From the NCBI GenBank assembly GCA_003251635.1, contig QKEW01000011.1, forward strand, positions 39,411 through 103,410: 64,000 nucleotides of DNA, given 5' to 3'. Below, piece after piece: positions 775-51,591 of this stretch (the first letter of the stretch is position 1; every line of letters begins with the position of its first letter). Made by a program: the position numbers and the translations under genes. Under the pieces are notes generated by a model. That model searched no databases. It was not told the origin of the DNA and was given only the letters and a program-made list of their open reading frames with translations. This stretch comes from a bacterium. Its GTDB lineage: Bacteria; Patescibacteriota; Minisyncoccia; Moranbacterales; GWC2-37-73.

Positions 775-1923
775 TTGTCTATGAAGATTGCTATACAAGC
801 CGCCGATTTGGATGAAAATCGAATCGATGGCACTAGGGTTTATATCTTTAATCTCTTGAAAAGATTCGGACAAATTTCATCGGAAGATGAGTTTTGGATT
901 TATCATAAAAAAGATTTTAATCCGAGTTTAGCTGTTCCGAAATTGGAAAACTATCACTTGGTTCAGAAGAATTCTCCTTTTCTTTGGACCCAAAGTCGTT
1001 TTGCTTGGGAAGTTTATCAAAAGGAAATCGACTCCCTTTGGATGCCGATGCATGACTTACCGCTTTGGCGTCGAAAAGGCATGCGCACGGTGGTAACCAT
1101 TCATGATTTGGCTTTTAAAACTTTTCCGCAATATTTTCCCAAAAAAGATTTGGTTAAAATAAATAGTTTGACCAACTATGTCATTCCCAGGGCGGATGGA
1201 TTGATTGCGATTTCTGAGGTTACCAAGAGAAATATTTTGAAATTTTATCCTCAAATCAAGGAGAAGAAAATCAAGGTTATCCATCATGGTTTTGATGAGG
1301 GAATTTTTCAAAAAGAAATTTCCCAGGAGAAAATCTTGCAGGTTTTAACTGAGTTTGGACTGCAGGATTGTTTGGATAAAAAAAATAATTCCCGATTCAT
1401 TCTTTACGTTGGAGCGATTCAGCCTCGAAAGAATTTGGCGACCTTGTTGGAAGCTTTTGAAGAACTTCGGCAAAAAGAATCAGAATTAAAACTGGTAATT
1501 GCCGGGGCGTCAGCTTGGAACTATGAGTCGATTTTGCAAAAAATTGAAAACAGTCCTTTTCGAAAGGACATTGTGGTTACCGGAACGATTCCTTTTGATT
1601 ATTTACCGGTTTTTTATCAGAAAGCGAGCCTTTTTGTTTTTCCGGAAATTTCTCCAGGATTTGGAATCCCGCTTTTGGAAGCTTTTGCTTCAGGTGTTCC
1701 GGTTTTGGCAAATGATGATCCGGTACTTAGGGAAGTTGGAGGTGAAGCGGCTGAATATTTTTCGTCAAAAGATAGCTCGGAGCTTGCTGGGAAAATTAAA
1801 TCAATTTTAGAGCGAAAAGAAATTGCCCAGGATATGAAACAAAAAGGATTTTTGAGATGCCAAGATTTTTCTTGGGATGAATGTGCCAAAAAGACTCTGG
1901 CGTTTATAAAAAGTGGTTCCTGA
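775..1923 (+). CDS. Glycosyltransferase, family 4 (GT-B, group 1)
   Basis: C-terminal E-x7-E region: FVFPEISPGFGIPLLEAFASGVPVLAND. Length 382 aa is typical of GT4 enzymes. Confidence 0.8.
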   Translation: MSMKIAIQAADLDENRIDGTRVYIFNLLKRFGQISSEDEFWIYHKKDFNPSLAVPKLENYHLVQKNSPFLWTQSRFAWEVYQKEIDSLWMPMHDLPLWRRKGMRTVVTIHDLAFKTFPQYFPKKDLVKINSLTNYVIPRADGLIAISEVTKRNILKFYPQIKEKKIKVIHHGFDEGIFQKEISQEKILQVLTEFGLQDCLDKKNNSRFILYVGAIQPRKNLATLLEAFEELRQKESELKLVIAGASAWNYESILQKIENSPFRKDIVVTGTIPFDYLPVFYQKASLFVFPEISPGFGIPLLEAFASGVPVLANDDPVLREVGGEAAEYFSSKDSSELAGKIKSILERKEIAQDMKQKGFLRCQDFSWDECAKKTLAFIKSGS

Positions 1924-1927
1924 TGAT

Positions 1928-2329
1928 TTATTTTTCATCTAAGAAAATCAGATGATAAAAAACTAGAAAGAAAGTCACGCTTAGGGTGGTGATGATGATA
2001 TTTTGCCAGAGAGCAAATTTCAACAAAGACGTGCCAATTATCAAAAAGAAAAAAATTAAAATTAGCGGCATCAGATGGTGTCGATTTTTTTTGGTGAAAA
2101 CTGAATCAAGTTTGCGGCCCAGAGTTGAAATTCCAGCTACTGTGGCAAATATTAAAAATATTACTATTAGAAATCCGTTATTTTGTGAAACCATGGTTGG
2201 AAGAGCGGTTTCCAATAGCAAGCCGGCCAGAAAAAAAATAATCAAAGAAAGCAGGATATCGTGCAGAAGCTTGTATATCACGAGGGAGAATTGGTGGTTA
2301 TTGAATTTTTGTCGAATTTTTTTGATCAT
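1928..2329 (-). CDS. Small polytopic membrane protein, hypothetical
   Basis: 133 aa with four hydrophobic helices. It is the last gene of a minus-strand run after 3673..5490 and 2334..3668. Confidence 0.4.
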   Translation of the reverse strand: MIKKIRQKFNNHQFSLVIYKLLHDILLSLIIFFLAGLLLETALPTMVSQNNGFLIVIFLIFATVAGISTLGRKLDSVFTKKNRHHLMPLILIFFFLIIGTSLLKFALWQNIIITTLSVTFFLVFYHLIFLDEK

Positions 2330-2333
2330 AAAT

Positions 2334-3668
2334 TTATTGAAGGCTGTAGTTATTGAATACTCGATTTTTTAGAGCAGCTAGAGATTTGAGCAGATTTTCT
2401 TTGTTGGCTATCTGGGTAAATTCAATGTCCAGTTGATCCAATTGGATAGAATTTTCAATTGGAAATGAGAATTGGTAATCATTGCCAGTGAAATTCTCAA
2501 TTGGATTTATTGAGGCTTGGCAATGAAAAAATCCTAGTTCTCTGATATGGGAATGAATTTCACATTCAATGCTTTTTTCCAGACTTTCTTGCTGGACTGT
2601 GACTGGTGCTATGCGCAGATAACTGTCCAGAATTGTTTTATTGGGAATTTCATGTCGCTCCTTGTTTTTAATGTAATAATATTTTTGAGAATCTTGGGCG
2701 TAAAAAATTGTTCCATCGGGGTGAGGACTGTCAATTTTAAAGAGACTGGCTTTTTCATAAATTCCAATTTCTTCACTACTTGCTTGGAGGATTTCATCCC
2801 ATTGATAACCCATTGATTCAAACGTGACAGGATTGTTAACTGGAAGAACCTTGTTATCGCTGACGATATAAACCGATATTCCAGCCGCCAGTAAGGTTCC
2901 ATCAGCGAAACCCAGATAATCCTGGGAGATCGAATAATTTTTTAGGAAATCCGAATTTTTTTCAATAGCTTGATTGGAAGAATATTGAGTCAGATAGGCT
3001 TGTTCGCTAACGAATTTTTGCAAAGTTTCCGGTTTGGTTAGTTGATAGAATTCATCGTCGATCTTGAAAATGGAGCTTTGTGGATAGGGGGAATCGAGAG
3101 TTATTTCTTTGCCCAATGGATTCAAGCCTAGGGAGGCGGGATCAATCATTTGGAAGGCTTCCGGAAAAAAGCCCATTTGAATAGCTGTTTCTGGTGAGGA
3201 AAATTTTCGTAAAGCTCCGGCTGAAACCAGATAATAATCAGATTCATTTTTCAGTAAACTGCCATCCTTAAAGTCCAAAGATTCGCCCAGGGGATAAAAA
3301 AAGGCTTGAAAAGATTTTCTGATTTTGATTTCACCGCTGGGTTTATTGGCTGTTTTTGAGTTTAGGTTGAAATCTATTTTTATTTCAGAATAGTTGCCGG
3401 TCAAGGCGGTGTCGAAAAAAAGATTTCCATTTTTCAAAGTGAGGTTGGGTTGATTTATTTCCTGTTGATCGTCTAGGCGTACATTGGTGACGGAATTTTT
3501 ATTAGAGTTGGGACTTCCAAAAGAAAAAGTGAAACCGGCTAGGGGAAATAAAATTCTGTGTAAAATAATCCAAGCTATCAAAAAAGACAAGATCCAAATC
3601 AAAGCTCTCCAGAGCCAAAACTTTTTTTGCCAAGACTGATTTAATTTTATTTGCGTGCCGGCTTGCAT
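2334..3668 (-). CDS. Hypothetical signal-anchored extracytoplasmic protein
   Basis: N-terminal TM helix (WLWRALIWILSFLIAWIIL) followed by a roughly 400-aa hydrophilic domain. It lies immediately downstream, on the same strand, of a GT-C glycosyltransferase. Confidence 0.55.
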   Translation of the reverse strand: MQAGTQIKLNQSWQKKFWLWRALIWILSFLIAWIILHRILFPLAGFTFSFGSPNSNKNSVTNVRLDDQQEINQPNLTLKNGNLFFDTALTGNYSEIKIDFNLNSKTANKPSGEIKIRKSFQAFFYPLGESLDFKDGSLLKNESDYYLVSAGALRKFSSPETAIQMGFFPEAFQMIDPASLGLNPLGKEITLDSPYPQSSIFKIDDEFYQLTKPETLQKFVSEQAYLTQYSSNQAIEKNSDFLKNYSISQDYLGFADGTLLAAGISVYIVSDNKVLPVNNPVTFESMGYQWDEILQASSEEIGIYEKASLFKIDSPHPDGTIFYAQDSQKYYYIKNKERHEIPNKTILDSYLRIAPVTVQQESLEKSIECEIHSHIRELGFFHCQASINPIENFTGNDYQFSFPIENSIQLDQLDIEFTQIANKENLLKSLAALKNRVFNNYSLQ

Positions 3669-3672
3669 AATT

Positions 3673-5490
3673 TTATCGAGTTAATTTTAGGATATAGCCA
3701 CTTACCTTGATTAGTGATTTTTGAGGATAATCAATGATCGATGTTGAATTCTTGTTTGATGTTTCAGTAAGGCGAGTTGTTTTTAACGTGTATTTATCAG
3801 CGACGGTTAATTTTTCTCCCAGTGAAGTGTTTAGGTAATTGGAGATTTCTTTTTGACCGACCAGGATGTAGACATTTTCAAATTGATCCAAATCCAATTT
3901 GTCTAAATCGTTCGGGTTGAAAAAATAAACAGCATTAAGATTGAAAACAGAGTTTAGTGGTCCAGCCAACAAAGACCAACCATCTCCACTGGAAAGTCGG
4001 TCGACTAATATTAGGTCGTTTGAGGAGAATCGCTTAGCTAATTCTTGGGTTTGTTGAAGCAAATCCTCATTCTCACTGAAAAAAGCGAAGCGTAAAAAAG
4101 GCTTGAGATTAATGAAGATTATCAAGATAATTAATGCTACAGGAAGGAATAGCCAAAAATTTGAGCGGCGATTAGTGTCTATTTTTTTTGCAAGCAGATA
4201 TTTGAGAAAAACGGCGGAATAAAAAATTGATAACGGCAAGATTGAAAAAACAAAGCGACGTAGCATCCAAGGATGGTCAGAGGAAATACTTGAATTTACC
4301 AGATAGATCAATGAAGGACTGGCCAGAAAAAACGGAATTAGAAGTTGCCAATTTTTTTTGAAAAAAGCTGCAATTACTCCGAATAAGCCTAAAATCCAAA
4401 AACTTATTAGACCGTATAGGGTATATATTTGAATCATGCGAAATCCCGGAAAAAACAAATTTTTGGTGATGATTTTTCCATTACTGTTGATTTCAAAAAA
4501 AGAATTGAAAGTAGCTTTGAGGATTTCTTTGAAAAAAGCCCAGTCTTTTTGCAGGTAAAAAAGAAAAATGAAAAAAAGAGACAAAATTAAAATGTTTAGG
4601 AAGCGGATATTTTTTTGCAAAAATTGGCGACTTGTTGGATTAAAAAATAGGATAAGTCCTCCAGTTACTAAAAAGGCGAAGCCCTCGATGCGCGTGAAGG
4701 CCAGCAAACTGGCGGATAAGATGAGGGCTAGAAATTTTTTTCTGTCAGGTTTTTCACTTATCTCGACTAAATTTAAAATGTAAATCCAAAGCAAGGCTAA
4801 AGCTAAATTTTCACTGAGGGTGAATTTAAAAAACCAAATAAAAGAAAAAGAAGACAGGGTGAAGAGTGGCAAAATTAAAGCATAATTTTTTTTGAGCAGC
4901 TTTTTTCCTAGGAGATAGAAAGCACTTAAAAACAGAAAGAGCGCAGCGGCGTTGGCAATTATCAAACCGTTGATTCCAAAAAAACTGTAAAAAGCTGCCA
5001 GCCAGCTGATGTAGCCCAGGGGAAACTGAGTTGTCAGTTGCCCATCTTCGGTATAGTGAAAGCCTGGGAAATTCAGGGCTTTGCCCTCTCCATAGATTTT
5101 GAAAAATTCCACCGAAGCCGGATCGGAAAAGGTCAGCTGGTGATTTTTAGCCAGCTCAATGGCGGCAATGCTTAGTGATCCCTGGTCGCGACCAGTAAAA
5201 ATCGTGGCAGTGGTAAAAAAGGAAAAAATAAAAACGAATGCAAAAAAAGCAAGACTGATTGCTATGTATGCGGGTGAGATTTTAAAATTTAATTTTATTT
5301 TTTTTTGTTCAGGTATGATTCGGAAAGCAAAAAAAATCCCAGCCGACACCAAATAAAGAATCAGGACCCAGCTGTAAAAAAAATCCAACAAGGTTAAGAT
5401 TAAAGCCAGGAAACCAAAAACAACCCAAAATAGGGAAAAGTTCAAGAAAAAATCATAATTATTATTGGTTTGTTTGACTTTATTCATCAA
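3673..5490 (-). CDS. Membrane glycosyltransferase, GT-C fold (ArnT/PMT_2-like, GT39/GT83-like)
   Basis: 605 aa. It has more than 10 TM helices in the N-terminal two thirds and a soluble C-terminal domain. The first-loop motif TGRDQGSLSIAAIELAKN resembles the ArnT/PMT first periplasmic loop. Confidence 0.55.
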   Translation of the reverse strand: MMNKVKQTNNNYDFFLNFSLFWVVFGFLALILTLLDFFYSWVLILYLVSAGIFFAFRIIPEQKKIKLNFKISPAYIAISLAFFAFVFIFSFFTTATIFTGRDQGSLSIAAIELAKNHQLTFSDPASVEFFKIYGEGKALNFPGFHYTEDGQLTTQFPLGYISWLAAFYSFFGINGLIIANAAALFLFLSAFYLLGKKLLKKNYALILPLFTLSSFSFIWFFKFTLSENLALALLWIYILNLVEISEKPDRKKFLALILSASLLAFTRIEGFAFLVTGGLILFFNPTSRQFLQKNIRFLNILILSLFFIFLFYLQKDWAFFKEILKATFNSFFEINSNGKIITKNLFFPGFRMIQIYTLYGLISFWILGLFGVIAAFFKKNWQLLIPFFLASPSLIYLVNSSISSDHPWMLRRFVFSILPLSIFYSAVFLKYLLAKKIDTNRRSNFWLFLPVALIILIIFINLKPFLRFAFFSENEDLLQQTQELAKRFSSNDLILVDRLSSGDGWSLLAGPLNSVFNLNAVYFFNPNDLDKLDLDQFENVYILVGQKEISNYLNTSLGEKLTVADKYTLKTTRLTETSNKNSTSIIDYPQKSLIKVSGYILKLTR

Positions 5491-5568
5491 AGCAATTGTA
5501 GCCTTTTTTAGCTAAGTTGCCAAGTTAAAAGGGATGTTTTAAAATGATAAAAAAGCTTCTTTGGGCTA

Positions 5569-8058
5569 ATGGCGGATGAAAAAACAAAAAGAAAAATAAT
5601 GAAAAAAAATCACGATCCTAATTTTTTTGCCTGGTACTATGAAAAAGGCTTGTTGGAATTTTTGGAAATTTGGAAAAATTTTTTGAAATTCAGCTGGCGT
5701 TTTTTTTCTGTAGGGGAATTAATCTTGACTTGGTTGTCACCTTGGAAGCGGGACATTAGTTTCAAAAATTGGCGCGGTTTTGATCCGCAAAAAACCATCA
5801 GTCTTTTCTTTGGCAATATCGTTTCTCGGTTTTTGGGGGCGATAGTGCGTTCGGCCGTCATCCTGGCAGGCCTATCTATTTTTTCAATTATTTGTCTAGT
5901 TGGCTTGGTTGGTTTAATTTTTTGGTTGATATTTCCATTACTGCTTGTTTGGACTTTATTCAAGGCTTTTGGCGGGTCATTTTTCTTTGTTGAGCTGTTA
6001 GGGTTATTGTTTGTCTATTTGGTTTTGGTGATTTGCGCTTATTATTTGAATTTACGCACTCCCTTTGGTCAGATGAATTTCCAGACTCTTTATTCGCGAC
6101 CGATTTTTGAAAGAATCTGTAACCGATTAGGTTTGGATAAAAAAGACTTATCCAAGAAAGTTCTGAAAAATTCCCAAAAATTGACGGAATTTCTGAAAAG
6201 TAAAAATCTTTCCATGGAGGATTTTGCTTTTTTGGTGAATTGGGAAACTGCGATCTTAGATGAAGAGCGTCTGAAAAAATCTTTTTGGCGCTGGGAAAAT
6301 CTTAGTCGATTGCCGGCTATTGGGGCTGGCTGGAAATATGCCTACACGGTCAAGTTGGATCGTTATTCTCGAGACATTTCCGTCTTTGATGGAAGCGAAT
6401 ATCGGGATCGGAAGTTGGTTGGCCGACAAGATGAAGTTGAGCTTTTGAAATTGATTTTGCAGCGACCCGACCAAAATTGCGCTTTGATAGTTGGCGGCAG
6501 TGGAATTGGAAAAAATACTTTGATCCATGATTTGGCTGCCCGAATTCGGCATAATCAATCTGAAAAATACTTTCTCAACAAAAGGATTTTGGAGTTAGAT
6601 CTGGGTCGGGTTATTTCAGATGCAATCAGTAGCGGCGAAGATTCTGAAAATGCGCTGAGAAATCTTTTTCTGGAAGCGGCTTACGCTGGCAATATCATTT
6701 TGATTATTGATCATTTGGAACAATTTTTGGGTAAAGAAGGAACCATGCTTCACCCAGACATTTCTCCGGTTCTGAATGAGTTTTTATCCCATCCTAATTT
6801 CCAAATCATTGCCACTTCGTCACCCAAAGAATATCATCGCTTGATTGAAAAATATGACCAAATTGCCAAATATTTTGAAGTGATTGAAATGCGCGAGCCT
6901 TCCGAGTCAGACATGTTGAAGATTCTATATAATAATTTCAAGCTCCAAGAAAGCGGTCGGGTCATTTTTACCCATGAAGCCTTCAAATCAATCATCAAAG
7001 AATCTAATCGCTACAATTGGTCATCTCCACTGCCAGAAAGAGCTTTAGATTTGGCTATGGACGTCTTAATGTTTTGGGAGAAAAAATCCGAGAAATATTT
7101 GATCGATCAAGAAGTTTTGGCGGACTTTCTTTCTTTGAAAACTGGCACGGCTCACGGTGAAATTAAAAATGAGGAAAGAAAAAAACTTCTGAATTTGGAG
7201 AAATTTTTACATCGACAGGTCATTGGTCAAGAAGAAGCAGTTAAGCAAGTAGCGGAAGCTCTGCGTCGCTCTCGCAGTGGAATTGCCAACAGTCAAAAAC
7301 CGGTAGGGACGTTCCTTTTTCTGGGACCAACCGGAGTGGGAAAGACTGAAACCGCTAAGGCTTTGGCCAAAATGTATTTTGGGGATGAGAATAAGATGAT
7401 CCGTTTTGATATGAGTGAATTTCAAACTCCTTCATCTATTGATCGGCTTTTAGGCTCATCCCAACTTAATCAGCCAGGGAGATTAACCAGTGAGGTCAAG
7501 GATAACCCCTATTCTTTGGTTTTATTGGATGAAATTGAAAAAGCCTACCCGGAAATTCTGGATGTTTTTTTGCAAATTTTGGATGAGGGTTTTGTGACTG
7601 ATGCTTTTGGAGAGAAAATCAATTTTCGCAACGTTTTGATTATTGCAACTTCCAATGTCGGAGCAGCCTTGATCAAGGAAAGTGTGGAAAAAAATGAGGA
7701 TCCGGAAAAGACCAAACAGCAGGTTATTGATTATGCTGTTTCCAATAATGTCTTTCGGGTGGAATTTTTGAATCGTTTTGATAGTGTGATTTTTTTCCGT
7801 CCGCTCAATGAGAAGGAATTGGAAAGTGTGGTGAAGCTGATGCTAAAAAAATTAGCTCGACGTTTGCAGGAAGAGAAAAATATTGAAATTGAATTCGGGG
7901 AAAATGTCGGGCACAAGATTATTGAAAAGGGTTACAATCCGATTTTTGGAGCTCGCTCAATTGATCATTATATTGAAGATTCAGTCGAAGACTTTCTGTC
8001 CAAAAAAATCATCGCCGGAGAAGTTGAAAAGGGTCAGAAAATTCGAATTGACTTGTGA
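5569..8058 (+). CDS. ClpA/ClpB-family double-AAA+ ATPase with an N-terminal polytopic membrane domain. The D1 Walker motifs are degenerate.
   Basis: The D1 region aligns with ClpB D1 (LVGRQDEVELLKLIL...ALIVGGSGIGKNTLIHDLAARI). Its Walker A reads GKN rather than GKT, and its Walker B reads IIDH rather than DE. D2 is canonical: VIGQEEAV, FLGPTGVGKTETAKALA, LVLLDEIEKA, sensor-2 GARSIDHYIED. The first roughly 190 aa carry about four TM helices. There is no IGL/IGF ClpP-binding loop. Confidence 0.8.
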   Translation: MADEKTKRKIMKKNHDPNFFAWYYEKGLLEFLEIWKNFLKFSWRFFSVGELILTWLSPWKRDISFKNWRGFDPQKTISLFFGNIVSRFLGAIVRSAVILAGLSIFSIICLVGLVGLIFWLIFPLLLVWTLFKAFGGSFFFVELLGLLFVYLVLVICAYYLNLRTPFGQMNFQTLYSRPIFERICNRLGLDKKDLSKKVLKNSQKLTEFLKSKNLSMEDFAFLVNWETAILDEERLKKSFWRWENLSRLPAIGAGWKYAYTVKLDRYSRDISVFDGSEYRDRKLVGRQDEVELLKLILQRPDQNCALIVGGSGIGKNTLIHDLAARIRHNQSEKYFLNKRILELDLGRVISDAISSGEDSENALRNLFLEAAYAGNIILIIDHLEQFLGKEGTMLHPDISPVLNEFLSHPNFQIIATSSPKEYHRLIEKYDQIAKYFEVIEMREPSESDMLKILYNNFKLQESGRVIFTHEAFKSIIKESNRYNWSSPLPERALDLAMDVLMFWEKKSEKYLIDQEVLADFLSLKTGTAHGEIKNEERKKLLNLEKFLHRQVIGQEEAVKQVAEALRRSRSGIANSQKPVGTFLFLGPTGVGKTETAKALAKMYFGDENKMIRFDMSEFQTPSSIDRLLGSSQLNQPGRLTSEVKDNPYSLVLLDEIEKAYPEILDVFLQILDEGFVTDAFGEKINFRNVLIIATSNVGAALIKESVEKNEDPEKTKQQVIDYAVSNNVFRVEFLNRFDSVIFFRPLNEKELESVVKLMLKKLARRLQEEKNIEIEFGENVGHKIIEKGYNPIFGARSIDHYIEDSVEDFLSKKIIAGEVEKGQKIRIDL

Positions 8059-8138: not shown

Positions 8139-9557
8139 TTGATAAAACTATTTATGAAATCAGAAAAATTTTTTACACCCAAAAAAATAATAATTTTGGT
8201 GATTTTGGTCGCAATTTTCTTTGGCGGTTTTTATTTATTTTCCTATGCCAAAGAAAATAAAAAAACTATCGCTATCAGTTCTTTGGCGGTTTTGAAAAGT
8301 ATTTCCAAATTTTTACCAATCGAAAAGGATACTAAAAAAGAAATTGAAGCTCTCAATACTTTGGTTGAAAAGTTTACCGCCAAAGATGATCAGGAATATT
8401 CTTTCTTGCTTTTGCTGCAAAATAACATGGAGTTGCGACCGGGTGGCGGATTTTTGGGTCAATATGCGGTAATTAAAGTTAAGAATGGAGAAGTGGTTTC
8501 CAGTTTTTTCGAGGACGCTAACTTGCTCGATCAACGTATAACCGCCAGAGTTACTCCACCTTGGCCCCTTACTCAGTACATGCAAATTAAGAAATGGAAA
8601 TTTCGTGACTCTAATTTTTCACCAGATTTTCCGACTAATGTGGAGAAGGCTAAATATTTCTATCGTCTTAGTGGACGCTCCAGTGATGGTTTTGATGGGG
8701 TGATTGCGGTTAATGCCACGGTTCTTGATGATGTGTTGGCACTGACCGGTCCAGTCACGATTCCTGGTTACAATGTGACTTTAACCAAGGACAATGCAGT
8801 TCTAAAATTGGAGGAAATTGTGGAAAAAGCTTATTTGTTAAATGAAGACTTGGATACTCAAAATCGCAAAGCTATCATGAAAAGTTTGACTCCAGCCTTG
8901 ATTGAAAAACTTTTCTCTTTGGGTAACGTTACTAAATTGGCGGATTTTGCTCATGAACAAATCAGTAAAAAAAATATTATGATCAACTTTACTGACAGTC
9001 AGTTGCAAAGTTTGATTGAGGATGTGCATTGGGATGGTTCGGTGGCTCAAGATTGGGATGGGGATTATCTGATGGCGGTGGATGCTAATCTGGGCGCGTT
9101 TAAATCGGATTATTATGTTAAACGCTCTATTTCCTATGATGTTGATTTGACGCAGATTAAACCAGTAGCCACTTTGAAAATCACTTACAATCACACTGCT
9201 ACCTATGCTGATTGGCGCACCACTGATTATCATTCTTACTTGCGGGTTTATGTGCCGGAAGGTTCCAATTTGTTAGAACGTTACATGGTGGGTTATCCGA
9301 CCACTCAGACGGAATTGGGCAAAACCTATTTTGGTTTCAAGGTTGATGTTTTGATGAATCATCAATTGGAAACCATGATCAAATATGAACTCCCGGAAAA
9401 ATTTGCCCAACAAGATTATAAGCTTTTGGTTCAAAAACAATCCGGCTTGGATGATGTGCCGATTGAAATTCATGTCAAAACCAATGACGGGGAATTCAAT
9501 CACAGCGGAATTTTGGAAAAAGACTTGAAATTGGAATTTCAGACGGTTCAGGGGTAA
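8139..9557 (+). CDS. DUF4012 domain protein with an N-terminal TM anchor
   Basis: Signature LLLQNNMELRPGGGFLGQYAVIKV (the ELRPxGGF[IL]G motif of DUF4012). N-terminal TM helix IIILVILVAIFFGGFYLF. Confidence 0.75.
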   Translation: MIKLFMKSEKFFTPKKIIILVILVAIFFGGFYLFSYAKENKKTIAISSLAVLKSISKFLPIEKDTKKEIEALNTLVEKFTAKDDQEYSFLLLLQNNMELRPGGGFLGQYAVIKVKNGEVVSSFFEDANLLDQRITARVTPPWPLTQYMQIKKWKFRDSNFSPDFPTNVEKAKYFYRLSGRSSDGFDGVIAVNATVLDDVLALTGPVTIPGYNVTLTKDNAVLKLEEIVEKAYLLNEDLDTQNRKAIMKSLTPALIEKLFSLGNVTKLADFAHEQISKKNIMINFTDSQLQSLIEDVHWDGSVAQDWDGDYLMAVDANLGAFKSDYYVKRSISYDVDLTQIKPVATLKITYNHTATYADWRTTDYHSYLRVYVPEGSNLLERYMVGYPTTQTELGKTYFGFKVDVLMNHQLETMIKYELPEKFAQQDYKLLVQKQSGLDDVPIEIHVKTNDGEFNHSGILEKDLKLEFQTVQG

Positions 9558-31395: not shown

Positions 31396-33969
31396 GTGAG
31401 CAAGAAAAGAATAATAAAACCTATGTTTGATATTCGTCCGGTTGATCCTAAGACCGGTGATTTGGATTGGGAAAAAATAAGAAAAGTTAGTCAAAATGCC
31501 AACATTAGGAATTTTGTTCGTGAATATAATAAAAGCGCAAAACCCAGCTCGGCTGATCTTTCGAAAAAAAATCTTGAAAATGGTTCCAGGGAAAAAATAA
31601 ATAAAAAAACCTCCAAAGATAATAAATTCCAAAAAATTAAAGAGGTGGCTCGAAATCAGGAGAATATAGATAATGCTCCGCCAGTTCATCCAGCCTTTTT
31701 TGATAAAAAGAGAAAAACAGTCCCAGCTGCCAAATTGGATCGCATAAGAAAAAGGGCGGAAAAAAAGTTTCTAAAAAGTCAAAAAAATCAAGAAAAATTT
31801 GCTCGCAACTTTCATAAAAGAAAAGAGAAAGAACGAAAACGATTTGAAAAACAACTTTCTCACGAAGAAAAGAAGAAAAATAAAAAATTATCCAAGTTTG
31901 AAAAAAAGAACCCTCAAAAAGATTCGATCGGCCGCCTTTTTTTCGAGGACATGGCATTTTCTTTCAAAAAAGAAAGTCGTGGAAACCAAAAGAGTTTTAG
32001 GATTTTTATCGTTTTGCTTTTATTTTTTGCTTTACTGATTGGTTTGCTTTCTTTGGGTTACTGGGGATTAAAGATAAAAAACAACGCTTTAATTTTTAGT
32101 CAGGACGGATATTTCAATATAAAATTAGCCGTAAGTCAGGTTAGTCGGCAAAACTTTGAAGACTCTCAGAAAAATTTTTCACAGGCTGCCATTTCCTTCC
32201 AAAAAGCTTCAGAGGAGGTCGGTCAGATGGGAACTGTCGTGGAAAAAGTTTCTCGTTTCTTTCCCTATCTTTCCAAAGTTTCTTCTGCTAAGAATGTTTT
32301 AGAGGCGGCTAATCATCTTTCTTTGGCTGGAACTAAAATCAACGAAATTGTCGAGGAGGTTTTTGCGCTCAAGAATCTTTCGGATAAAGGACAGATTTCC
32401 ATGTTGGAAGAGTTGAAGAAAGCGACTTTGAAGTTGGAGACAGTGCGATCCGAGTTGTCAGTGGCTCAGAAAAATATCGATTTGGTTAAAGTGGATGATT
32501 TGCCTGAAGAATTTCGAGAAAAGTTTGTTTTACTAAAAACCGAATTGCCAGACATGATCAGTTTGACGGATTCCTTTTTGAATAATGGTTATATTTTTTC
32601 CGACATGCTTGGTAGTCAAGGCCCGCGAAAATATCTATTTTTATTTCAAAACAACAATGAGATGAGAGCTACGGGCGGATTTATCGGAAGTTATGGTCTT
32701 TTGGATATTTCCAATGGTCGAGTGAAAAATTTTTTTATTGACGGGATTTTTAATCCGGATGGACAATTGATTGATAAGGTTGTTCCGCCAGAGCCAATTC
32801 AGAAGATTAGTGCCGCTTGGAGTTTGCACGATAGTAATTGGTTTGCTGATTTTCCAACTTCAGCTCAGGAGGCGATTGTGTTTTACGAGAAAACCGGTGG
32901 TCCAACCGTTGATGGCGTGATCACCTTGACGCCGACAGTTTTGCAAAAATTATTGAAAGTCACCGGGCCAATTGAAATGCCTGACTATGATGTGATTTTA
33001 GATAGTGATAATTTCATAGAAAAAACCCAATATGAAGTTGAAGTTGATTATGATAAAGAAGAAAATAAGCCCAAAGAAATTTTATCTGATCTGGCTCCAA
33101 TATTGTTGGATAGAATTTCCAAAACAACTGAGCCGGAAAAGGTTTTGGGATTTTTGAAGGTTTTATCGGATAGTCTCAAGGAAAAACACATTTTGATTTA
33201 TTCGGAGAATGCTGATTTGCAAAAAATAATTTCCCAGCAGGGCTGGTCGGGTGAAATTCTTGATTCTCAAAAAGATTACCTGAGTGTGGTAAACACGAAT
33301 ATAAATGGATTCAAAACGGATGGAGTTATTGAGGAAGATATTAATCAGGAGGTTGAAATTTCTGATGACGGGTCGATTGTGGATACGGTTTCCATTACGC
33401 GGCGGCATAATGGCGGAGACACTCCCTATGAATGGTGGAACAAGGTTAATGCTAATTATTTAAGAATTTATGTCCCCTTAGATTCGGAGCTGATTAGCGT
33501 TGAAGGCCAAACTCGCGAATTTGTTGAGCCGCCTTTGGATTATGACAAACTGGGATTCAAACGAGACGAAGCGGTTCAGCAAGAAGCAGATTCTATTTTA
33601 CTCGACGAGCAAACTAACACGCGAATTTATCAGCAAAATGGCAAGACGGTTTTTGCTAATTGGACTTATGTTAGTCCAGGAGAAGAAGTAACAGTGGTTT
33701 ATAAATATAAATTACCTTTCCGTCTTTTTTCAGCCATGTTCAATTCTTCCTTAAAAAATCAGGTTGATTCCTACTCATTATTAGTGCAAAAACAATCCGG
33801 TAGCTTGGGAAGTGATTTCAATTTGAATTTAACCTATCCTTCAAACTATCAAATTGATTGGACTCAACCGAATAATTCTTCTCAGGAAAGTCAGACTTTT
33901 TCATTGACTGAAAAGCTGGATATTGATAGATTTATCGGAGTTGTTTTTGAGAAAGATTTGGAAAATTAA
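31396..33969 (+). CDS. DUF4012 domain protein with a long lysine-rich cytoplasmic N-terminal tail and a TM anchor
   Basis: DUF4012 signature LFLFQNNNEMRATGGFIGSYGLLDISNG. Residues 40-190 are highly basic (KKRK.., KEKERKRFEK.., KKKNKKLSKFEKK). TM helix IFIVLLLFFALLIGLLSLGYW. GTG start; the ATG at 31423 is an alternative start. Confidence 0.75.
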   Translation: MSKKRIIKPMFDIRPVDPKTGDLDWEKIRKVSQNANIRNFVREYNKSAKPSSADLSKKNLENGSREKINKKTSKDNKFQKIKEVARNQENIDNAPPVHPAFFDKKRKTVPAAKLDRIRKRAEKKFLKSQKNQEKFARNFHKRKEKERKRFEKQLSHEEKKKNKKLSKFEKKNPQKDSIGRLFFEDMAFSFKKESRGNQKSFRIFIVLLLFFALLIGLLSLGYWGLKIKNNALIFSQDGYFNIKLAVSQVSRQNFEDSQKNFSQAAISFQKASEEVGQMGTVVEKVSRFFPYLSKVSSAKNVLEAANHLSLAGTKINEIVEEVFALKNLSDKGQISMLEELKKATLKLETVRSELSVAQKNIDLVKVDDLPEEFREKFVLLKTELPDMISLTDSFLNNGYIFSDMLGSQGPRKYLFLFQNNNEMRATGGFIGSYGLLDISNGRVKNFFIDGIFNPDGQLIDKVVPPEPIQKISAAWSLHDSNWFADFPTSAQEAIVFYEKTGGPTVDGVITLTPTVLQKLLKVTGPIEMPDYDVILDSDNFIEKTQYEVEVDYDKEENKPKEILSDLAPILLDRISKTTEPEKVLGFLKVLSDSLKEKHILIYSENADLQKIISQQGWSGEILDSQKDYLSVVNTNINGFKTDGVIEEDINQEVEISDDGSIVDTVSITRRHNGGDTPYEWWNKVNANYLRIYVPLDSELISVEGQTREFVEPPLDYDKLGFKRDEAVQQEADSILLDEQTNTRIYQQNGKTVFANWTYVSPGEEVTVVYKYKLPFRLFSAMFNSSLKNQVDSYSLLVQKQSGSLGSDFNLNLTYPSNYQIDWTQPNNSSQESQTFSLTEKLDIDRFIGVVFEKDLEN

Positions 33970-33975
33970 ATAAAT

Positions 33976-35619
33976 ATGATCAGTAAATTAGCGAAAAACA
34001 ATTTTTTTAATGGCCGAGCTATCGGATCAATTGTGCAAGCTGCCATGATAATTTCTTTGATGGGAATAGCCAGTCGAGTCCTGGGTCTTTTTCGTGATCG
34101 AATCTTGGCTTCAACTTTTGGCGCTGGAGACATTTTGGATGCTTACTACGCTGCTTTTCGGGTTCCTGATTTGATTTATAGTCTTTTGATTTCCGGAGCT
34201 TTGAGCGCAGCTTTTATTCCGGTTTTTACTCAATTGATTTCTCATGGAAAAGAAAAGAAAGCTTGGGATTTAGCCAGTGGTATTTTGAATATCCAAATTG
34301 TTTTTATGGGTCTTTTGGCTTTGATTTTGTCCTTGTTTGCACCTTTTCTGATGAAATTGATCACACCTGGTTTTGAGGGTCCGAAAATGGATCTGACCGT
34401 TAACTTAACCAGAATCATGTTTTTAAGTCCGATAATTTTGGGGATTAGCGGAATTTTTGGCGGAATTCTAGTTTCGATGAAGAAATTTTTTGTCTATTCT
34501 TTGGCGCCGATAATGTATAATTTAGGAATAATTTTCGGGGCGGTTTTTTTGGTTAAGATTTTGGGTCCAGCTGGTTTGGCCTGGGGTGTGGTTTTAGGGG
34601 CTGTTCTTCATATGCTAATTCAATATCCAGCGGTAAAATTTTCCGGTTTCAATTTGAGGGTGAATTTTTCCCAGATTTTTCACAGCAAAGAAGCTTTGCA
34701 AATTTTCCACTTGATGATTCCAAGAGTGTTGGGGGTAGCCATAAACCAGGTTAATTTTTTGGTTATTACGATTTTTGCCTCAACTTTGGCGGCGGGCAGT
34801 TTGGCTATTTTTAATTTTGCTAACAATATCCAAAGCGTACCCCTGGGTCTTTTTGGAATATCTTTTGCCATTGCAGCTTTTCCAACTTTAAGTACCCATT
34901 ATGCCAAAAATGAGGAGAAAGAATTTATCAATGTTTTTTCTAAAACTTTGCGCCAAATTCTTTTTTTTGTGATTCCTTTCAGTGTTTTGATTTATGTGCT
35001 TAGAGCTCAAATTGTTCGGGTTATTTTGGGTAGTGGAAATTTTGACTGGGAAGATACGATTTTAACTTTCAACACGCTGGGAATTTTGGCCTTGAGTTTA
35101 TTTGCCCAATCCTTGATTCCGCTTTTAGCTCGGGCTTTTTATGCTATTTGCAATACCAAGACACCTTTTTATGTGGCGCTTTTTTCCGAAGCGATTAACA
35201 TTGCTCTGGTTGTTTGGCTTATCGGTGAGTATAAAATTTTGGGTCTGGCCATAGCTTTTTCAGTCTCCAGTTTGGTCAACATGCTTTTGTTGGTTGTTTT
35301 GTTGGGTAAAAAATTTCATTACTTAAAAGAAATTAATAGCAAACAAACAATTTTAAAGATAATTTTGGCTTCTTTGCTGGCTGGCTTGGCGGCTCAAATT
35401 GGAAAAATTTTAGTTGGGACGCGAGGCGAGCTGGATACTTTTTTGGAAATCCTAGTTCAGCTGATTTTGGCTGGAGGACTAGGTTTTGGAATCTTTGCTA
35501 TAAGTTGCTATTTTTTAAAGGTGGAAGAATTTTTCAGTTTTGCCAATTCGATCGGTCGAAAAATTTTTCGAAGTAAAAAATACATAAATGAAAGCACAAC
35601 GGATGTTACGGGACTTTAG
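33976..35619 (+). CDS. murJ: Lipid II flippase MurJ (MviN)
   Basis: FGAGDILDAYYAAFRVPDLIYSLLISGALSAAFIPVF is the MurJ N-terminal signature. About 14 TM helices. Confidence 0.85.
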   Translation: MISKLAKNNFFNGRAIGSIVQAAMIISLMGIASRVLGLFRDRILASTFGAGDILDAYYAAFRVPDLIYSLLISGALSAAFIPVFTQLISHGKEKKAWDLASGILNIQIVFMGLLALILSLFAPFLMKLITPGFEGPKMDLTVNLTRIMFLSPIILGISGIFGGILVSMKKFFVYSLAPIMYNLGIIFGAVFLVKILGPAGLAWGVVLGAVLHMLIQYPAVKFSGFNLRVNFSQIFHSKEALQIFHLMIPRVLGVAINQVNFLVITIFASTLAAGSLAIFNFANNIQSVPLGLFGISFAIAAFPTLSTHYAKNEEKEFINVFSKTLRQILFFVIPFSVLIYVLRAQIVRVILGSGNFDWEDTILTFNTLGILALSLFAQSLIPLLARAFYAICNTKTPFYVALFSEAINIALVVWLIGEYKILGLAIAFSVSSLVNMLLLVVLLGKKFHYLKEINSKQTILKIILASLLAGLAAQIGKILVGTRGELDTFLEILVQLILAGGLGFGIFAISCYFLKVEEFFSFANSIGRKIFRSKKYINESTTDVTGL

Positions 35620-48155: not shown

Positions 48156-50006
48156 TTACTCTACATCATCCACATAGTAAACCAAAATAGAGGTGCCGAT
48201 TTGATAGCGGGGTTGATATTGAGTGATCCAGCGCCAAGACTGCTCGTCTGGTTTTTTCATGGTTCCATCGCTATTGAGGCGGGTGTCATAGATGCTGCCT
48301 TGAAGTTGGTTGACGCTGACTGCGTACCAGCCATTTTCCAGCGGTCGCTTGCTGTCCCACCAATCAATGAAACGATCTCCCAAATAGAAGCGCGGATTGC
48401 CACCACCAAAATAATTCAAGCGGATCTGGTCAATTTCAGGATGTTGATTTATGAAGGTTACAAATCTTTCCAAATCTTGGCCCCAATCAGCGTTGGAGTC
48501 GGTGACGTAGTGGTAGCCATTTTTTGGTCCGCCGGCTAATTCATTGAAATAGGATAGATAATATGGATAGGCCATAAGAGTTTCAGAAAGAATCCAGATA
48601 AGCAGAAATCCCAACACGTATTTGAAGAAAAATAATTGATGTGGTTGGAAGCGTGTGAAAAAATCGTGGATTTTCTTGGCCAGTAAGATATAGATGAAGG
48701 GAAAAATTGGAAAGAGGTGGCGCAAGCCAATGTTGAGATTGCCGGTAATGCTCAAATAAGAATAGACGACGATGAAGCCAAACAGAGTGTATTCAACAAC
48801 GTTGGAACGAAGCCAAGACAGAACTCTTTTTCCGTTGGTATGCAAAAAGTCCTGGGTCTTGAGATGGATCTTGGAAAAAATTTGCCAAAGGGTGAAAATG
48901 GTCATGGCGATGATTAGAATCAGCAAAGGCAATGTTTCTTTGAGAATAAAAACAGTTGGGAAGTAAGCAGGGAAGGCGTTGTCGGAAACTTGGCCAATAA
49001 AGTAGGCGCCGTTGCCGCCAGCCACGCGCTTGAAAACCATGCCCATGCCCAGGACATATTCAGCCATTGGTCGCAAGCTCGAGTGGTCATTCATGGCCAA
49101 CATCAAATCGCGAGCCCTGAGACTATTTGGATTGGAATCATTGGCTGGAAAATAGAAATTGATAGTTTTTTCAAATACGACCGGATCGGTTTTATAGGTA
49201 TTGGGCAGATAGACCAACCAAACCAAAACCATAGAAACAGCAAAAGCTACCAAGCCTTTTCCTAGGTAAGAGAACCAAACCCGGATTCTCTTTTGGTTGG
49301 CGTTGATTTTTTTTATCAACGGGTAGCCGACTAAGATTAATCCGAAAATCGGCAAAGTGGTGATGGAGGAAAATTTAGCCACGTGCAAAAGTCCCCAAAA
49401 TATTCCGCCCACCAGGGCATTTTTCCAAGTCGGATTTTTGATGAATTTGAGGAAATAATAAAAAGAAAAAGTTAAAAAAGCCATGACGCCAATGTCAGTG
49501 GTGACATAGTGGTTGTGTCCCAAAACATTTGGGTCAAGCGCATAGAAAAATAAAGCCAAAAGTCCAGCCAAAACCCCAGCCAATTCTTTGACCCACTTGA
49601 AAATAAACAGTCCGGCAATCAAAGAAATCAGCACGATTGGCAGGCGTGACCAAAAAAGAATCGCGTCTGGATTGTTGCCAGCCTCCCAAAGCAAATACTT
49701 GCCGGCATTCCATTGACCAGTATCATTGAGTTCATTCTGCCAGAAGCTTAAATTGGTATCAAAATTCAAGTTTAGAAATAGTAAAGGCAGAGCAGCTAAA
49801 TCTTTGATGAGGGGTGGATGTTCGGGATTGAGGCGCATGTCGTGCTGGGTTAAGTAGGAGTAGCCAGCCGGGATGTGGGCGATTTCGTCAAAAGTAGCAC
49901 TGTCGCTGGCGGCATTGTGCAATGAAACCACAAACATAAAAGCCAGTAAGGAGAAGACGATTTTCCACTGATGTTTTTTGAGCCAATCCTCGATTTTTTC
50001 TTTCAT
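48156..50006 (-). CDS. Membrane glycosyltransferase, GT-C fold (ArnT / PMT_2 family, GT39/GT83-like)
   Basis: First-loop motif DEIAHIPAGYSYLTQHDMRLNPEHPPLIKDL is typical of the ArnT/PMT family. More than 11 TM helices plus a C-terminal soluble domain. Confidence 0.75.
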   Translation of the reverse strand: MKEKIEDWLKKHQWKIVFSLLAFMFVVSLHNAASDSATFDEIAHIPAGYSYLTQHDMRLNPEHPPLIKDLAALPLLFLNLNFDTNLSFWQNELNDTGQWNAGKYLLWEAGNNPDAILFWSRLPIVLISLIAGLFIFKWVKELAGVLAGLLALFFYALDPNVLGHNHYVTTDIGVMAFLTFSFYYFLKFIKNPTWKNALVGGIFWGLLHVAKFSSITTLPIFGLILVGYPLIKKINANQKRIRVWFSYLGKGLVAFAVSMVLVWLVYLPNTYKTDPVVFEKTINFYFPANDSNPNSLRARDLMLAMNDHSSLRPMAEYVLGMGMVFKRVAGGNGAYFIGQVSDNAFPAYFPTVFILKETLPLLILIIAMTIFTLWQIFSKIHLKTQDFLHTNGKRVLSWLRSNVVEYTLFGFIVVYSYLSITGNLNIGLRHLFPIFPFIYILLAKKIHDFFTRFQPHQLFFFKYVLGFLLIWILSETLMAYPYYLSYFNELAGGPKNGYHYVTDSNADWGQDLERFVTFINQHPEIDQIRLNYFGGGNPRFYLGDRFIDWWDSKRPLENGWYAVSVNQLQGSIYDTRLNSDGTMKKPDEQSWRWITQYQPRYQIGTSILVYYVDDVE

Positions 50007-50022
50007 AATCTTTTATTATATT

Positions 50023-51591
50023 TTAATTTTTTATTTCCCAAAATTTGTCCCCAGGAAAAAATTCGTATTCAAAAACGGAGGCTTGAGGATAGATGGCTTG
50101 AACTTTTTCAATAACTTCTTCATATCTTTCGCCCATGAGAATCGCAAAATTATTTTCAATTTGGAAATTGGAATCTAGAAATTCCTCTTTGTTTTGATAG
50201 GTAATGTTGGGTAAATCGGGATTGAGGAATTTGACCGGAATCCTTTCCATGTTGGGGGTGATCAGGAATTTGGAAGTTTGCGGATCCAAAGTTTTGATGT
50301 AATAGGCGATGTCTTTGAAATTAGCGTTAAAAGAGCCGTGTTGTTTGGGATTATCTTTGAAAAAGACGAAATATTTGATCGGATTGAAAAGGCCGATGAA
50401 AATAAAAGAACCGACAAAAAGGGAAATCAGGAAAATTTTCAGTGAAACATAATTTTGATCAGATAATTTTTTCAAAATCCAAAGAAATGGCACGGTGGCC
50501 ATGATCATAACAACCGGTTGGGTTCCGATGGCGCGCAAGGCGTGAGGCAAACCTTCGGCGGTCATGAATTCCGGTGCAAGCATTCCAAAAAACCAAGCTA
50601 ATAAGAAAAAATAGAGATAGAGTTTTTCATTGTGGACGTCATGTCGAAAACGCAGCCAAAGCAACTGCAAAGCTTTTCCAATCAGATAGATTAGGCCGGT
50701 CAGGAAAGCGGCGCCCATGATTGGATCCAGGATTGGATAGGGCGGGTAGTTGTGACGCCAATTTTGATCGCCCCAAAAATTATATTTAGCCAAGCTTAGA
50801 CCCAGACTGCGAAAAGCGGTTTGAATCAAATGACCCTCATTCATTTCGGGTGAAAAAATTGAGATTGAGGCTGAGCGCGAACTGAGATATTCCGGATGAA
50901 CGTGAAATTCCCAAAGGATTGGTGCAAGAGTTATGAATGTGCCGATAGAAAAAATCAGCAGTTGTTTCCAGAAAGTTTTCAGGAAATCTTTTTGAGTGAT
51001 CCACATGAAAAACCAAAGAACCAAAATAATGGCCGGAGCAATACGAAAAGCAATGTAGGTGTGAAATCCGAGCCCGAAAATCAAACCGCTGATTAGAAAT
51101 GGAAAAATTTTGCGAGTGCGAAAACCTTTTAGCAAGAAGTAAAAAGAAAAAGTCAAAATGGTCGGAATCATGATAGCTCGGAATCCGATGCGCGAAAAAT
51201 TGATAGCCCAATAAGAAAAGGCCATCAAATAGGCACTAATGAGACCGGCGCGCGGGCTTTGAAAAATTTCTTTGGAAAGAAGATAGACTCCCCAGACCGC
51301 CAAGGTGCCGCAAATGATTGAGCAGATTTTCAAAGCCAAAATTGTGTTGCCAAAAAAATGAATTCCCAGAGCGATCAGATTTATGAAAAGTCCTTCGCGC
51401 CCGTTGTTGTCTGTGTAGAAAAGTTGGTAATTGCCACTGGCAAGAGCGTGTTGGGCATCAATGCCATTGACAGCTTCGTCAGGATAAATTCCGCTGGGAG
51501 CATTTTCGATATCAAAAATTCGCAGACCGAAAGCGGTAACCAAAATCAATAAAAGCAAGGAAAACTGCCACAAGCGGAAACTTTTTTTCAT
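50023..51591 (-). CDS. Membrane glycosyltransferase, GT-C fold (ArnT / PMT_2 family), paralogue of 48156..50006
   Basis: DEAVNGIDAQHALASGNYQLFYTDNNGREGLFINL first-loop motif. Polytopic. Confidence 0.7.
   Translation of the reverse strand: MKKSFRLWQFSLLLLILVTAFGLRIFDIENAPSGIYPDEAVNGIDAQHALASGNYQLFYTDNNGREGLFINLIALGIHFFGNTILALKICSIICGTLAVWGVYLLSKEIFQSPRAGLISAYLMAFSYWAINFSRIGFRAIMIPTILTFSFYFLLKGFRTRKIFPFLISGLIFGLGFHTYIAFRIAPAIILVLWFFMWITQKDFLKTFWKQLLIFSIGTFITLAPILWEFHVHPEYLSSRSASISIFSPEMNEGHLIQTAFRSLGLSLAKYNFWGDQNWRHNYPPYPILDPIMGAAFLTGLIYLIGKALQLLWLRFRHDVHNEKLYLYFFLLAWFFGMLAPEFMTAEGLPHALRAIGTQPVVMIMATVPFLWILKKLSDQNYVSLKIFLISLFVGSFIFIGLFNPIKYFVFFKDNPKQHGSFNANFKDIAYYIKTLDPQTSKFLITPNMERIPVKFLNPDLPNITYQNKEEFLDSNFQIENNFAILMGERYEEVIEKVQAIYPQASVFEYEFFPGDKFWEIKN

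Follow-up and report, generated by a model that had tools for sequence, protein, structure and literature searches.

A membrane-anchored Clp/Hsp100-like AAA+ protein with a degenerate D1 tier, conserved in Patescibacteria

Bacteria of the Candidate Phyla Radiation (Patescibacteria, here CPR) make up a large share of bacterial diversity, and neither the biology of their envelope nor a good part of the genes they conserve has been explained. Here we describe a gene found in a 64,000-nucleotide stretch of a Moranbacterales genome (assembly GCA_003251635.1, contig QKEW01000011.1, positions 39,411 to 103,410 of the forward strand), which is called the window throughout. The gene encodes a protein of 829 amino acids (aa) in which a hydrophobic N-terminus is followed by two tandem AAA+ modules of the Clp/Hsp100 type. 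The first module (D1) has, to judge from its motifs, become a conserved pseudo-ATPase, the second (D2) keeps the motifs of a motor, the aromatic pore loops are missing from both, and in most other CPR the N-terminal module is encoded by a separate gene directly upstream. A first reading of this DNA, made from the letters only and referred to here as the sequence-only reading, had already proposed a membrane-anchored ClpB-like protein with a dead D1 ring.

The 829-aa protein and its two AAA+ tiers

Features of the gene and of its immediate neighborhood are collected in Table 1. With tandem AAA+ modules, a Clp-type D2 and a ClpB_D2-small lid, the protein has the composition of class I of the Clp/Hsp100 family, as had been proposed. 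Pfam places AAA_2 at residues 577–739 (4e-48) and ClpB_D2-small at residues 746–827 (6e-22), and D1 is matched solely by generic P-loop models. The best PDB sequence matches are ClpC, ClpB, and ClpC1 at E about 1e-104 (ClpC 3e-104), and in a phmmer comparison with the structures of Bacillus subtilis ClpC the D1 modules align at 1.3e-26. An AlphaFold2 (AF2) monomer prediction built from 113 homologs (pLDDT 87.5, pTM 0.81) superposes in Foldseek on the cores of ClpC, ClpB, and ClpC1 with TM-scores of 0.82–0.86. The starts of homologous proteins line up with M11, and pLDDT falls below 50 over residues 1–14, so the true start of the open reading frame (ORF) may be M11 at position 5599.

Table 1. 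Coordinates in the window of the 829-aa gene, its predicted parts, and neighboring genes (TM, transmembrane helix)
Feature	Residues	Coordinates	Strand	Basis or remark
Whole ORF, membrane-anchored Clp/Hsp100-like double-AAA+ protein	829 aa	5569..8058	+	ATG start; Pfam, PDB alignment, hydropathy, AF2
N-module, predicted cytoplasmic head	17-94	5617..5850	+	motifs FF.WYY, PW.RD, N..SR.iG..VR; no Pfam match
TM1 (predicted), long hydrophobic helix, C-terminal part of N-module	95-131	5851..5961	+	hydropathy; AF2; conserved W119...P123
TM2 (predicted), returns the chain to the cytoplasm	138-160	5980..6048	+	hydropathy; AF2; would correspond to second TM of split form
Helical juxtamembrane linker	165-258	6061..6342	+	ends in FW.wENL...iG.qW.YgYT.LD; no Clp_N match
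D1, predicted pseudo-ATPase AAA+ tier	259-505	6343..7083	+	PDB alignment, Foldseek
D1 degenerate Walker A, GGSGIGKN	309-316	6493..6516	+	family consensus G..GiGK[K/S/R/N]T
D1 pore-loop site, ISDAISSGEDSE	349-360	6613..6648	+	canonical KYRG tyrosine gone
D1 degenerate Walker B, LIIDH	378-382	6700..6714	+	family consensus lvIE[H/N]
D1 arginine-finger site, K434-Y435		6868..6873	+	alignments; canonical RR
D2, AAA_2 ATPase module	577-739	7297..7785	+	Pfam; conserved motifs
D2 Walker A, GPTGVGKT		7324-7347	+	conserved in family
D2 pore-loop-1 site, GSSQLNQPG	629-637	7453..7479	+	4-residue deletion takes out GYVG tyrosine
D2 Walker B, LLDE		7516-7533	+	conserved in family
ClpB_D2-small lid with sensor-2 GAR (R796)		7804..8049	+	Pfam; conservation
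GT4 glycosyltransferase flanking the divergent operon		775..1923	+	in 45 loci
p133, small 4-TM membrane protein, third gene of divergent operon		1928..2329	-	in 35 loci; no GtrA match in Pfam
p444, N-terminally anchored extracytoplasmic protein, co-operonic with p605		2334..3668	-	in 45-50 loci
p605, GT-C-fold glycosyltransferase (predicted), divergent partner gene		3673..5490	-	AF2 and Foldseek; synteny
Divergent intergenic region, 78 nt, back-to-back sigma70-like sites		5491..5568	.	consensus matches only
DUF4012 protein downstream of the 829-aa gene		8139..9557	+	in 13-15 closer loci

The protein does not fall into the ClpB, ClpA/C, or ClpV/TssH subfamily. The nearest NCBIfam models (ClpB, ClpA, TssH, ClpK/G) score 344–415 bits against equivalog cut-offs of 885–1232: ClpB (TIGR03346) reaches 414.6 of the 1232 bits asked for, ClpA (TIGR02639) 378 of 993, and ClpV/TssH (TIGR03345) 343.8 of 885. 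ClpC residues 396–451, which form the M-domain, are skipped in the alignment, and the ClpP-docking VGF loop of ClpC pairs with KESVEKNEDPEK (VEKNEDP), so that no [IV]G[FL] loop is present in D2; the absence of both features had been noted in the sequence-only reading. Clp_N (PF02861) is not matched in the Pfam search of the protein, nor on residues 1–250 even at E<=10, and Pfam finds no Peptidase_M41 domain such as FtsH has. There are no type VI secretion genes among the neighbors of the 829-aa gene and no second Clp homolog or canonical Clp paralog in the window. Relatives are named ClpC, ClpA, or “AAA-2 ATPase” in the databases. On these sequence grounds the protein is clearly derived from Clp/Hsp100, yet without the defining functional features of ClpB, ClpA/C, or ClpV.

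D1 departs from the canonical form in both Walker motifs, in the arginine fingers, and in the pore loop. In the phmmer alignment GGSGIGKN stands opposite GEPGVGKT of ClpC, H382 stands opposite the Walker B residue E280, which is mutated to Ala in PDB entry 3j3t, and the pore loop reads ISSGED, with no aromatic residue, where KYRG is canonical. A protein search yielded about 117 relatives over the full length, at 39–70% identity, the named ones being Moranbacteria, Parcubacteria, or Patescibacteria, and columns were counted over 114 aligned sequences, two outgroups included. The Walker A threonine position is occupied by Lys in 77 of them, Ser in 10, Arg in 9, Asn in 5, and the canonical Thr in only 2; in the Walker B pair the first residue is Glu (100) or Asp (9), and the position of the catalytic Glu holds His (62) or Asn (43). 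In place of GK[TS], DE, and trans arginine fingers, therefore, the window protein has GKN, DH, and KY, and the family has GK[K/S/R/N], E[H/N], and KY. The GKN and DH substitutions already pointed out by the sequence-only reading are a property of the family and not a sequencing error, since by the alignment the losses recur throughout it. We thus regard D1 as a conserved pseudo-ATPase, judged by its motifs, that has lost the Walker A Thr, the Walker B Glu, the arginine fingers, and the pore-loop Tyr. G309, G312, and G314 are invariant across the aligned family and K315 is nearly so, which suggests that the geometry of the P-loop is still under selection. D1 may keep nucleotide or phosphate binding in a structural role, with hydrolysis predicted to be impossible; the earlier description of D1 as impaired in ATP binding may accordingly be too strong, whereas that of a hydrolysis-dead ring gains from the additional loss of RR and KYRG.

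The ATPase motifs of D2 are near-invariant in the family: GPTGVGKT, LLDEIEK, the TSN sensor 1, the NR arginine finger (R736), and the GAR sensor 2. By these retained motifs D2 would be competent as a motor, and the trans arginine finger R736 implies that its active sites lie between subunits. To this extent the canonical D2 that had been claimed stands; its pore loop does not. GYVG of pore loop 1 is gone through a four-residue deletion (GSSQLNQPG in the window protein, GAPPGYVGYEEGG in the canonical form), and aromatic pore loops, whether KYRG in D1 or GYVG in D2, are absent from all 86 wider family members aligned, namely 42 fused representatives and 44 proteins of the split form described below. 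The D1 losses and the loss of GYVG beside an intact D2 are common to both sets, and the losses of pore loops and arginine fingers hold in more than 110 orthologs. Since the loop that grips the substrate is deleted throughout the family, the deletion argues against an Hsp100-type threading of membrane substrates.

The N-terminus carries no Pfam or NCBIfam family on residues 1–250. Hydropathy gives two hydrophobic segments, 95–131 and 138–160, and the AF2 model has helices at 19–45 and 48–56, a long helix at 73–134 (pLDDT >90), and a helix at 138–162 that packs against it as a hairpin. The conserved polar and aromatic motifs of residues 17–94, together with their net positive charge, fit a cytoplasmic location. 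Two TM helices are the best reading of these predictions; a break of the long helix at the conserved W119...P123 could make them three. The membrane anchor suggested by the sequence-only reading is thus borne out by hydropathy and by the AF2 hairpin, and its estimate of about four TM helices in place of the N-domain gives way to a conserved cytoplasmic head and a two-helix hairpin followed by a helical linker of about 90 residues.

A two-gene form and its fusion

A profile of residues 1–250, searched against 1.84 billion representatives at E<=1e-3, matched 1395 proteins. About 45 of them are fused proteins of 770–893 aa, and many are stand-alone proteins of 110–140 aa that cover profile positions ~5–120. 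No Pfam or NCBIfam family is found on the latter, and wherever one of them has been named, the name is “hypothetical protein” and the source is given as Patescibacteria, Paceibacterota, or Berkelbacteria. Metagenomes were also scanned with a degenerate DNA pattern encoding FS[IV]xxLx[KR]T[LF]F[SA]PW, which gave 120 loci with 105 complete ORFs, 91 of 118–169 aa and 14 of 632–904 aa. Where a stand-alone gene is followed by another ORF, this ORF matches residues ~190–828 of the 829-aa protein at E<1e-10 in 60 of 76 loci, typically at 1e-100 to 1e-156, and the complete downstream proteins measure 788–874 aa with one exception of 528 aa; 10 of the 16 loci without such a match are cut off by contig ends. 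In independent gene calls the small and large genes overlap, by 11 nt in CP011213, a closed genome of Berkelbacteria, and by 4 nt in a contig from Hainich groundwater.

The motifs of the small protein (W..Y, PW.R, N..SR..G...R, and W...P in the hydrophobic tail) are in this way linked across CPR to an ATPase with a degenerate D1 and without GYVG. The large proteins of the split form have two N-terminal TM helices of their own and a longer helical N-domain, of which the linker in the window protein is a shortened remnant; longer fused forms of 870–900 aa that retain the long N-domain also exist. In the split-form large proteins the D1 P-loops are degenerate (GESGSGRST, GEPGTGRIS, GQAGSGRKS), and D2 is canonical but for the missing GYVG. 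Because the N-module is, in most other CPR, a separate gene directly upstream of the Clp-like gene and often overlapping it, the comparison of sequences identifies the window protein as a fusion of an N-module gene of ~125 aa with a TM-anchored Clp-like gene of ~800–870 aa. The small protein would then lie with its N-terminus inside and its C-terminus outside, its TM helix having replaced TM1 of the ATPase so that a hairpin of two helices results. The fusion is probably the derived state, since the split form is commoner and taxonomically broader. It also constitutes evidence of the Rosetta-stone type for a joint working of the two proteins, and the small membrane partner, fused in the window protein, appears to be obligate to the ATPase. 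On present sequences, a family of membrane-embedded AAA+ machines derived from Clp/Hsp100 would span CPR, fused in Moranbacteria and some other lineages.

One locus has a different composition. At L006:397-1996 (GCA_034680565.1), a stand-alone N-module gene of 127 aa lies 1 nt ahead of a gene for a 404-aa protein, after which comes a Peptidase_S11 gene. The 404-aa protein is homologous only to the linker and the large subdomain of D1 (BLASTP 4e-18), its P-loop is erased (VVGDDEDERLG), and it has no D2. It may be a motor-less variant of the system, a single case that we do not generalize.

Genomic distribution and neighborhood

The fused gene was found by pattern scan in the genomes of 132 GTDB species; the majority are Moranbacteria, and some belong to Paceibacteria, Portnoybacteria, and Parcubacteria. 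Many of these genomes have the Moranbacteria synteny and are titled “uncultured Bdellovibrionales”, “Micavibrio”, or “Pseudobdellovibrionaceae” at NCBI (e.g., L012, L023, L024, L026); they are probably mislabeled CPR bins. An identical 829-aa gene lies on a Logan contig (L088, SRR7216773) from an independent assembly. In the protein search no match to the 829-aa protein exceeded 70% identity, yet the neighboring p605 has a 100% identical entry (P0270).

The conserved partner of the fused gene is p605. By tblastn 59 of 85 loci have a homolog upstream in divergent orientation, and by clustering 50–52 of 79 species loci do; the pairing is still seen where the ATPase is only about 35% identical. 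Pfam gives p605 only sub-threshold PMT_2 matches, and nothing significant came from searching PDB sequences with profiles of p605 or p444. The AF2 model of p605 (pLDDT 87.3, pTM 0.90) nevertheless has only GT-C enzymes in its Foldseek top list, ALG12 at 7.8e-7 followed by ALG9, ArnT, PglB, STT3, AftA, and Emb, and the first loop holds an invariant R101-D102. The GT-C fold is thus confirmed at the level of the predicted structure, and the GT-C and DUF4012 neighbors named by the sequence-only reading are both present. Neither p444 nor p133 is assigned to a family by Pfam or NCBIfam, and the identification of p133 as GtrA was rejected for want of Pfam support. In the intergenic region the two sigma70-like promoter matches are 10/12 each and share a palindromic -35 element, TTGCCAA (5517-5523), which is not conserved (6 of 28 orthologous intergenic regions). 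GT4 glycosyltransferases lie downstream in 45 loci, an epimerase occurs near the fused gene in 15 loci, and Wzm/Wzt-type ABC transporter genes belong to the same surface-glycan clusters in two loci.

In the loci of the split form the neighbors are others. No p605 or p444 was found there, and MraZ (Pfam 3.8e-40) lies within two genes downstream in 15 of the 36 loci that have a downstream neighbor. The split-form operon often stands directly upstream of mraZ-rsmH-ftsL, the start of the division and cell-wall cluster (loci L089–L208; e.g., L099, L138, L151), with RsmH/MraW (1.3e-102) and an FtsL-like protein as further recurrent neighbors and a Peptidase_S11 carboxypeptidase downstream in two to three loci. 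Neither MraZ nor RsmH is found in the 64-kb window.

The window is rich in further envelope genes. A second, larger DUF4012 protein of 857 aa (31396..33969, +; Pfam 6e-32) is followed after 6 nt by the gene for the lipid II flippase MurJ (33976..35619, +; 5e-96), and this direct adjacency suggests that DUF4012 proteins in this organism are tied to the export of envelope precursors. Two adjacent PMT_2/GT-C paralogs at 48156..50006 (-) and 50023..51591 (-) match Pfam at 2.8e-9 and 3.8e-12, so that together with p605 the window holds at least three GT-C enzymes. An 822-aa ORF at 55512..57980 (+) has a weak match to the TrwB domain of type IV coupling proteins (5.6e-8), and near it lie a 971-aa ORF (51759..54674) and a 766-aa ORF (58882..61182) with no Pfam match. 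The window contains no tRNA genes and no Rfam matches. A GC skew that is positive throughout and a forward-strand position of almost every gene would fit one replichore in a small CPR genome.

Possible function and relation to known systems

Our best reading, with a little less than even confidence, is that the protein is a membrane remodeler powered by D2, probably non-threading and linked to envelope biogenesis. Six protomers of 829 aa would form a hexamer in which the dead D1 ring, beside the membrane, serves as a rigid scaffold and only the D2 ring, on the distal side, acts as a motor. Since neither ring has an aromatic pore loop, polypeptides would probably not be threaded; ATP-driven motion of D2 would instead pass by way of D1 to the TM hairpins and N-modules arranged in a ring, and a membrane-embedded partner would thereby be remodeled or gated. 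In Moranbacteria the likeliest partner would be the divergent operon of the GT-C glycosyltransferase, p444, and p133. The more general role in envelope biogenesis is proposed from the context of glycan clusters in Moranbacteria (GT4, epimerase, DUF4012) together with that of the division and cell-wall cluster in the split lineages.

Several points weigh against this proposal. The association with the GT-C gene is absent in about a third of the fused-form loci and does not extend to the split-form loci, so it may be a lineage-specific placement of genes rather than a functional coupling. Divergent orientation speaks for possible co-regulation, not for the formation of a complex, and the adjacency to mraZ could be synteny inherited within one subclade. 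Even with no aromatic residue in the pore loops, translocation is not strictly excluded, and the number of TM helices (two vs. three) is drawn from AF2, hydropathy, and topological reasoning.

The main rival to a remodeler is a quality-control unfoldase or extractase of membrane proteins, similar to Msp1/ATAD1 or to the AAA module of FtsH, which would thread its substrates with D2 alone and with non-aromatic loops. A ring-type AAA+ at the cytoplasmic face of the membrane, the retained Clp/Hsp100 core fold, and the full set of D2 motifs from Walker A to sensor 2 would all suit such an enzyme, and NSF and PEX1/PEX6 function as two-tier AAA+ proteins with one dead ring. We consider it unlikely, since both pore-loop tyrosines have gone from every member examined, a protease domain, a ClpP loop, and an adaptor-binding Clp_N are all lacking, and neither a dedicated small membrane partner nor synteny with glycan clusters would be expected of general quality control. 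Quite unlikely, in our estimate, is the most far-reaching version of the remodeler, that of a new mechanistic class, universal or near-universal in CPR, in which a loop-less D2 motor, a dead D1 scaffold, a membrane ring, and a small subunit serve a non-classical client without unfolding proteins; such a machine might, for instance, gate or power a GT-C glycosyltransferase or handle lipid-linked envelope precursors during growth and division.

It has also to be considered that the 12 TM helices of a hexamer (18 in split systems) form a pore coaxial with the AAA+ channel, through which a polymer or a folded client would be exported, as in the analogies of HSP101-EXP2 in PTEX and of Bcs1. TM hairpins joined directly to a ring-forming ATPase, a conserved small membrane subunit, and the position of the gene amid surface-glycan and secretion-related genes are in keeping with such a motor. 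We hold it to be very unlikely, as each protomer contributes few TM helices and none with conserved polar pore-lining residues, the pore loops have no gripping residues, and these loci and the window already contain the Wzm/Wzt and MurJ exporters. That the gene is a decaying or mis-sequenced ClpC or ClpB, damaged in one strain, finds some support in the database labels of its relatives and is effectively refuted by conservation: the same losses are present in more than 110 orthologs at 39–70% identity and in 132 species genomes, many family-specific residues are invariant, AF2 confidence is high, and the gene recurs unchanged in an independent assembly. Almost no weight attaches either to an anti-phage defense ATPase like DolB of the Dodola system, since the PADLOC DolB model matches residues 528–697 at 2.8e-36 through the generic Clp D2 core only, no neighbor matches any PADLOC model and hence DolA is absent, and the stable synteny with housekeeping envelope genes across species is unlike that of a defense island; membership in Dodola was therefore rejected.

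Whatever its client, the family is conserved in Moranbacteria, Paceibacteria, Portnoybacteria, Berkelbacteria, and many unassigned CPR contigs. Because its members are routinely annotated as ClpC, ClpA, or AAA-2 ATPase and lack the defining features of a ClpP partner and of a disaggregase, metabolic reconstructions probably miscount them as one or the other. For the AAA+ field the family amounts to an experiment of nature, a membrane-anchored Hsp100 whose D1 is dead, whose two rings both lack aromatic pore loops, and which has an obligate small partner. The fusion opens the system to tests by co-expression, by cryo-EM, and by depletion in those CPR that can be cultivated. Full-text literature searches and a paper on Patescibacteria genetics gave no description of a TM-anchored, pore-loop-less Clp in CPR, and in the literature searched no member of the Clp/Hsp100 superfamily is described that joins a TM anchor and a small partner to pore loops without aromatic residues.

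Among known systems, ClpC, ClpB, and ClpA (B. subtilis ClpC, PDB 3j3t/7abr) share with the window protein the tandem D1-D2 core, the D2-small lid, and identical ATPase motifs in D2. The window protein differs from them in its membrane anchor, in the absence of Clp_N, of the VGF/IGF loop, and of the M-domain, hence of a coupling site for Hsp70 or MecA, in a D1 predicted to be dead and without arginine fingers, in the loss of both pore-loop tyrosines, and in scores far under the equivalog cut-offs. Human CLPB/Skd3 is likewise driven by a Clp-type D2 only, its precursor has a hydrophobic stretch, and its PDB matches to D2 lie around 1e-40; it has no D1 tier, carries ankyrin repeats, keeps the pore-loop Tyr, and is an active disaggregase. 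Plasmodium HSP101 in PTEX and ClpV/TssH are also Clp/Hsp100 proteins enlisted in membrane-associated machines, but they are soluble, have canonical pore loops and an active D1, and are recruited through partner proteins. As in FtsH and Msp1/ATAD1, an N-terminal TM anchor would set a hexameric AAA+ ring on the cytoplasmic face of the membrane; these, however, carry just one AAA module each, whose pore loops are aromatic, and FtsH has an M41 protease domain in addition. The division of labor between a non-hydrolyzing scaffold tier and a motor tier is known from NSF, PEX1/PEX6, and p97-type proteins, which belong to another AAA+ clade, are soluble, and have aromatic pore loops in the active ring.

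The closest analogy may be Torsin with LAP1/LULL1, although no Torsin chain is among the PDB sequence matches at E<=0.001 and the resemblance would be one of function. Torsin is a membrane-associated ATPase related to the Clp D2, without aromatic pore loops, that is thought to remodel rather than to thread; it is eukaryotic, has a single tier, and resides in the lumen of the endoplasmic reticulum, where a membrane-anchored dead AAA-like partner in the same ring donates the arginine finger. Membrane association, the absence of an aromatic pore loop, and a dead AAA-like module would thus be common to both, whereas the dead module of the window protein is D1, stacked as a separate tier, and an arginine finger is retained by D2 itself.

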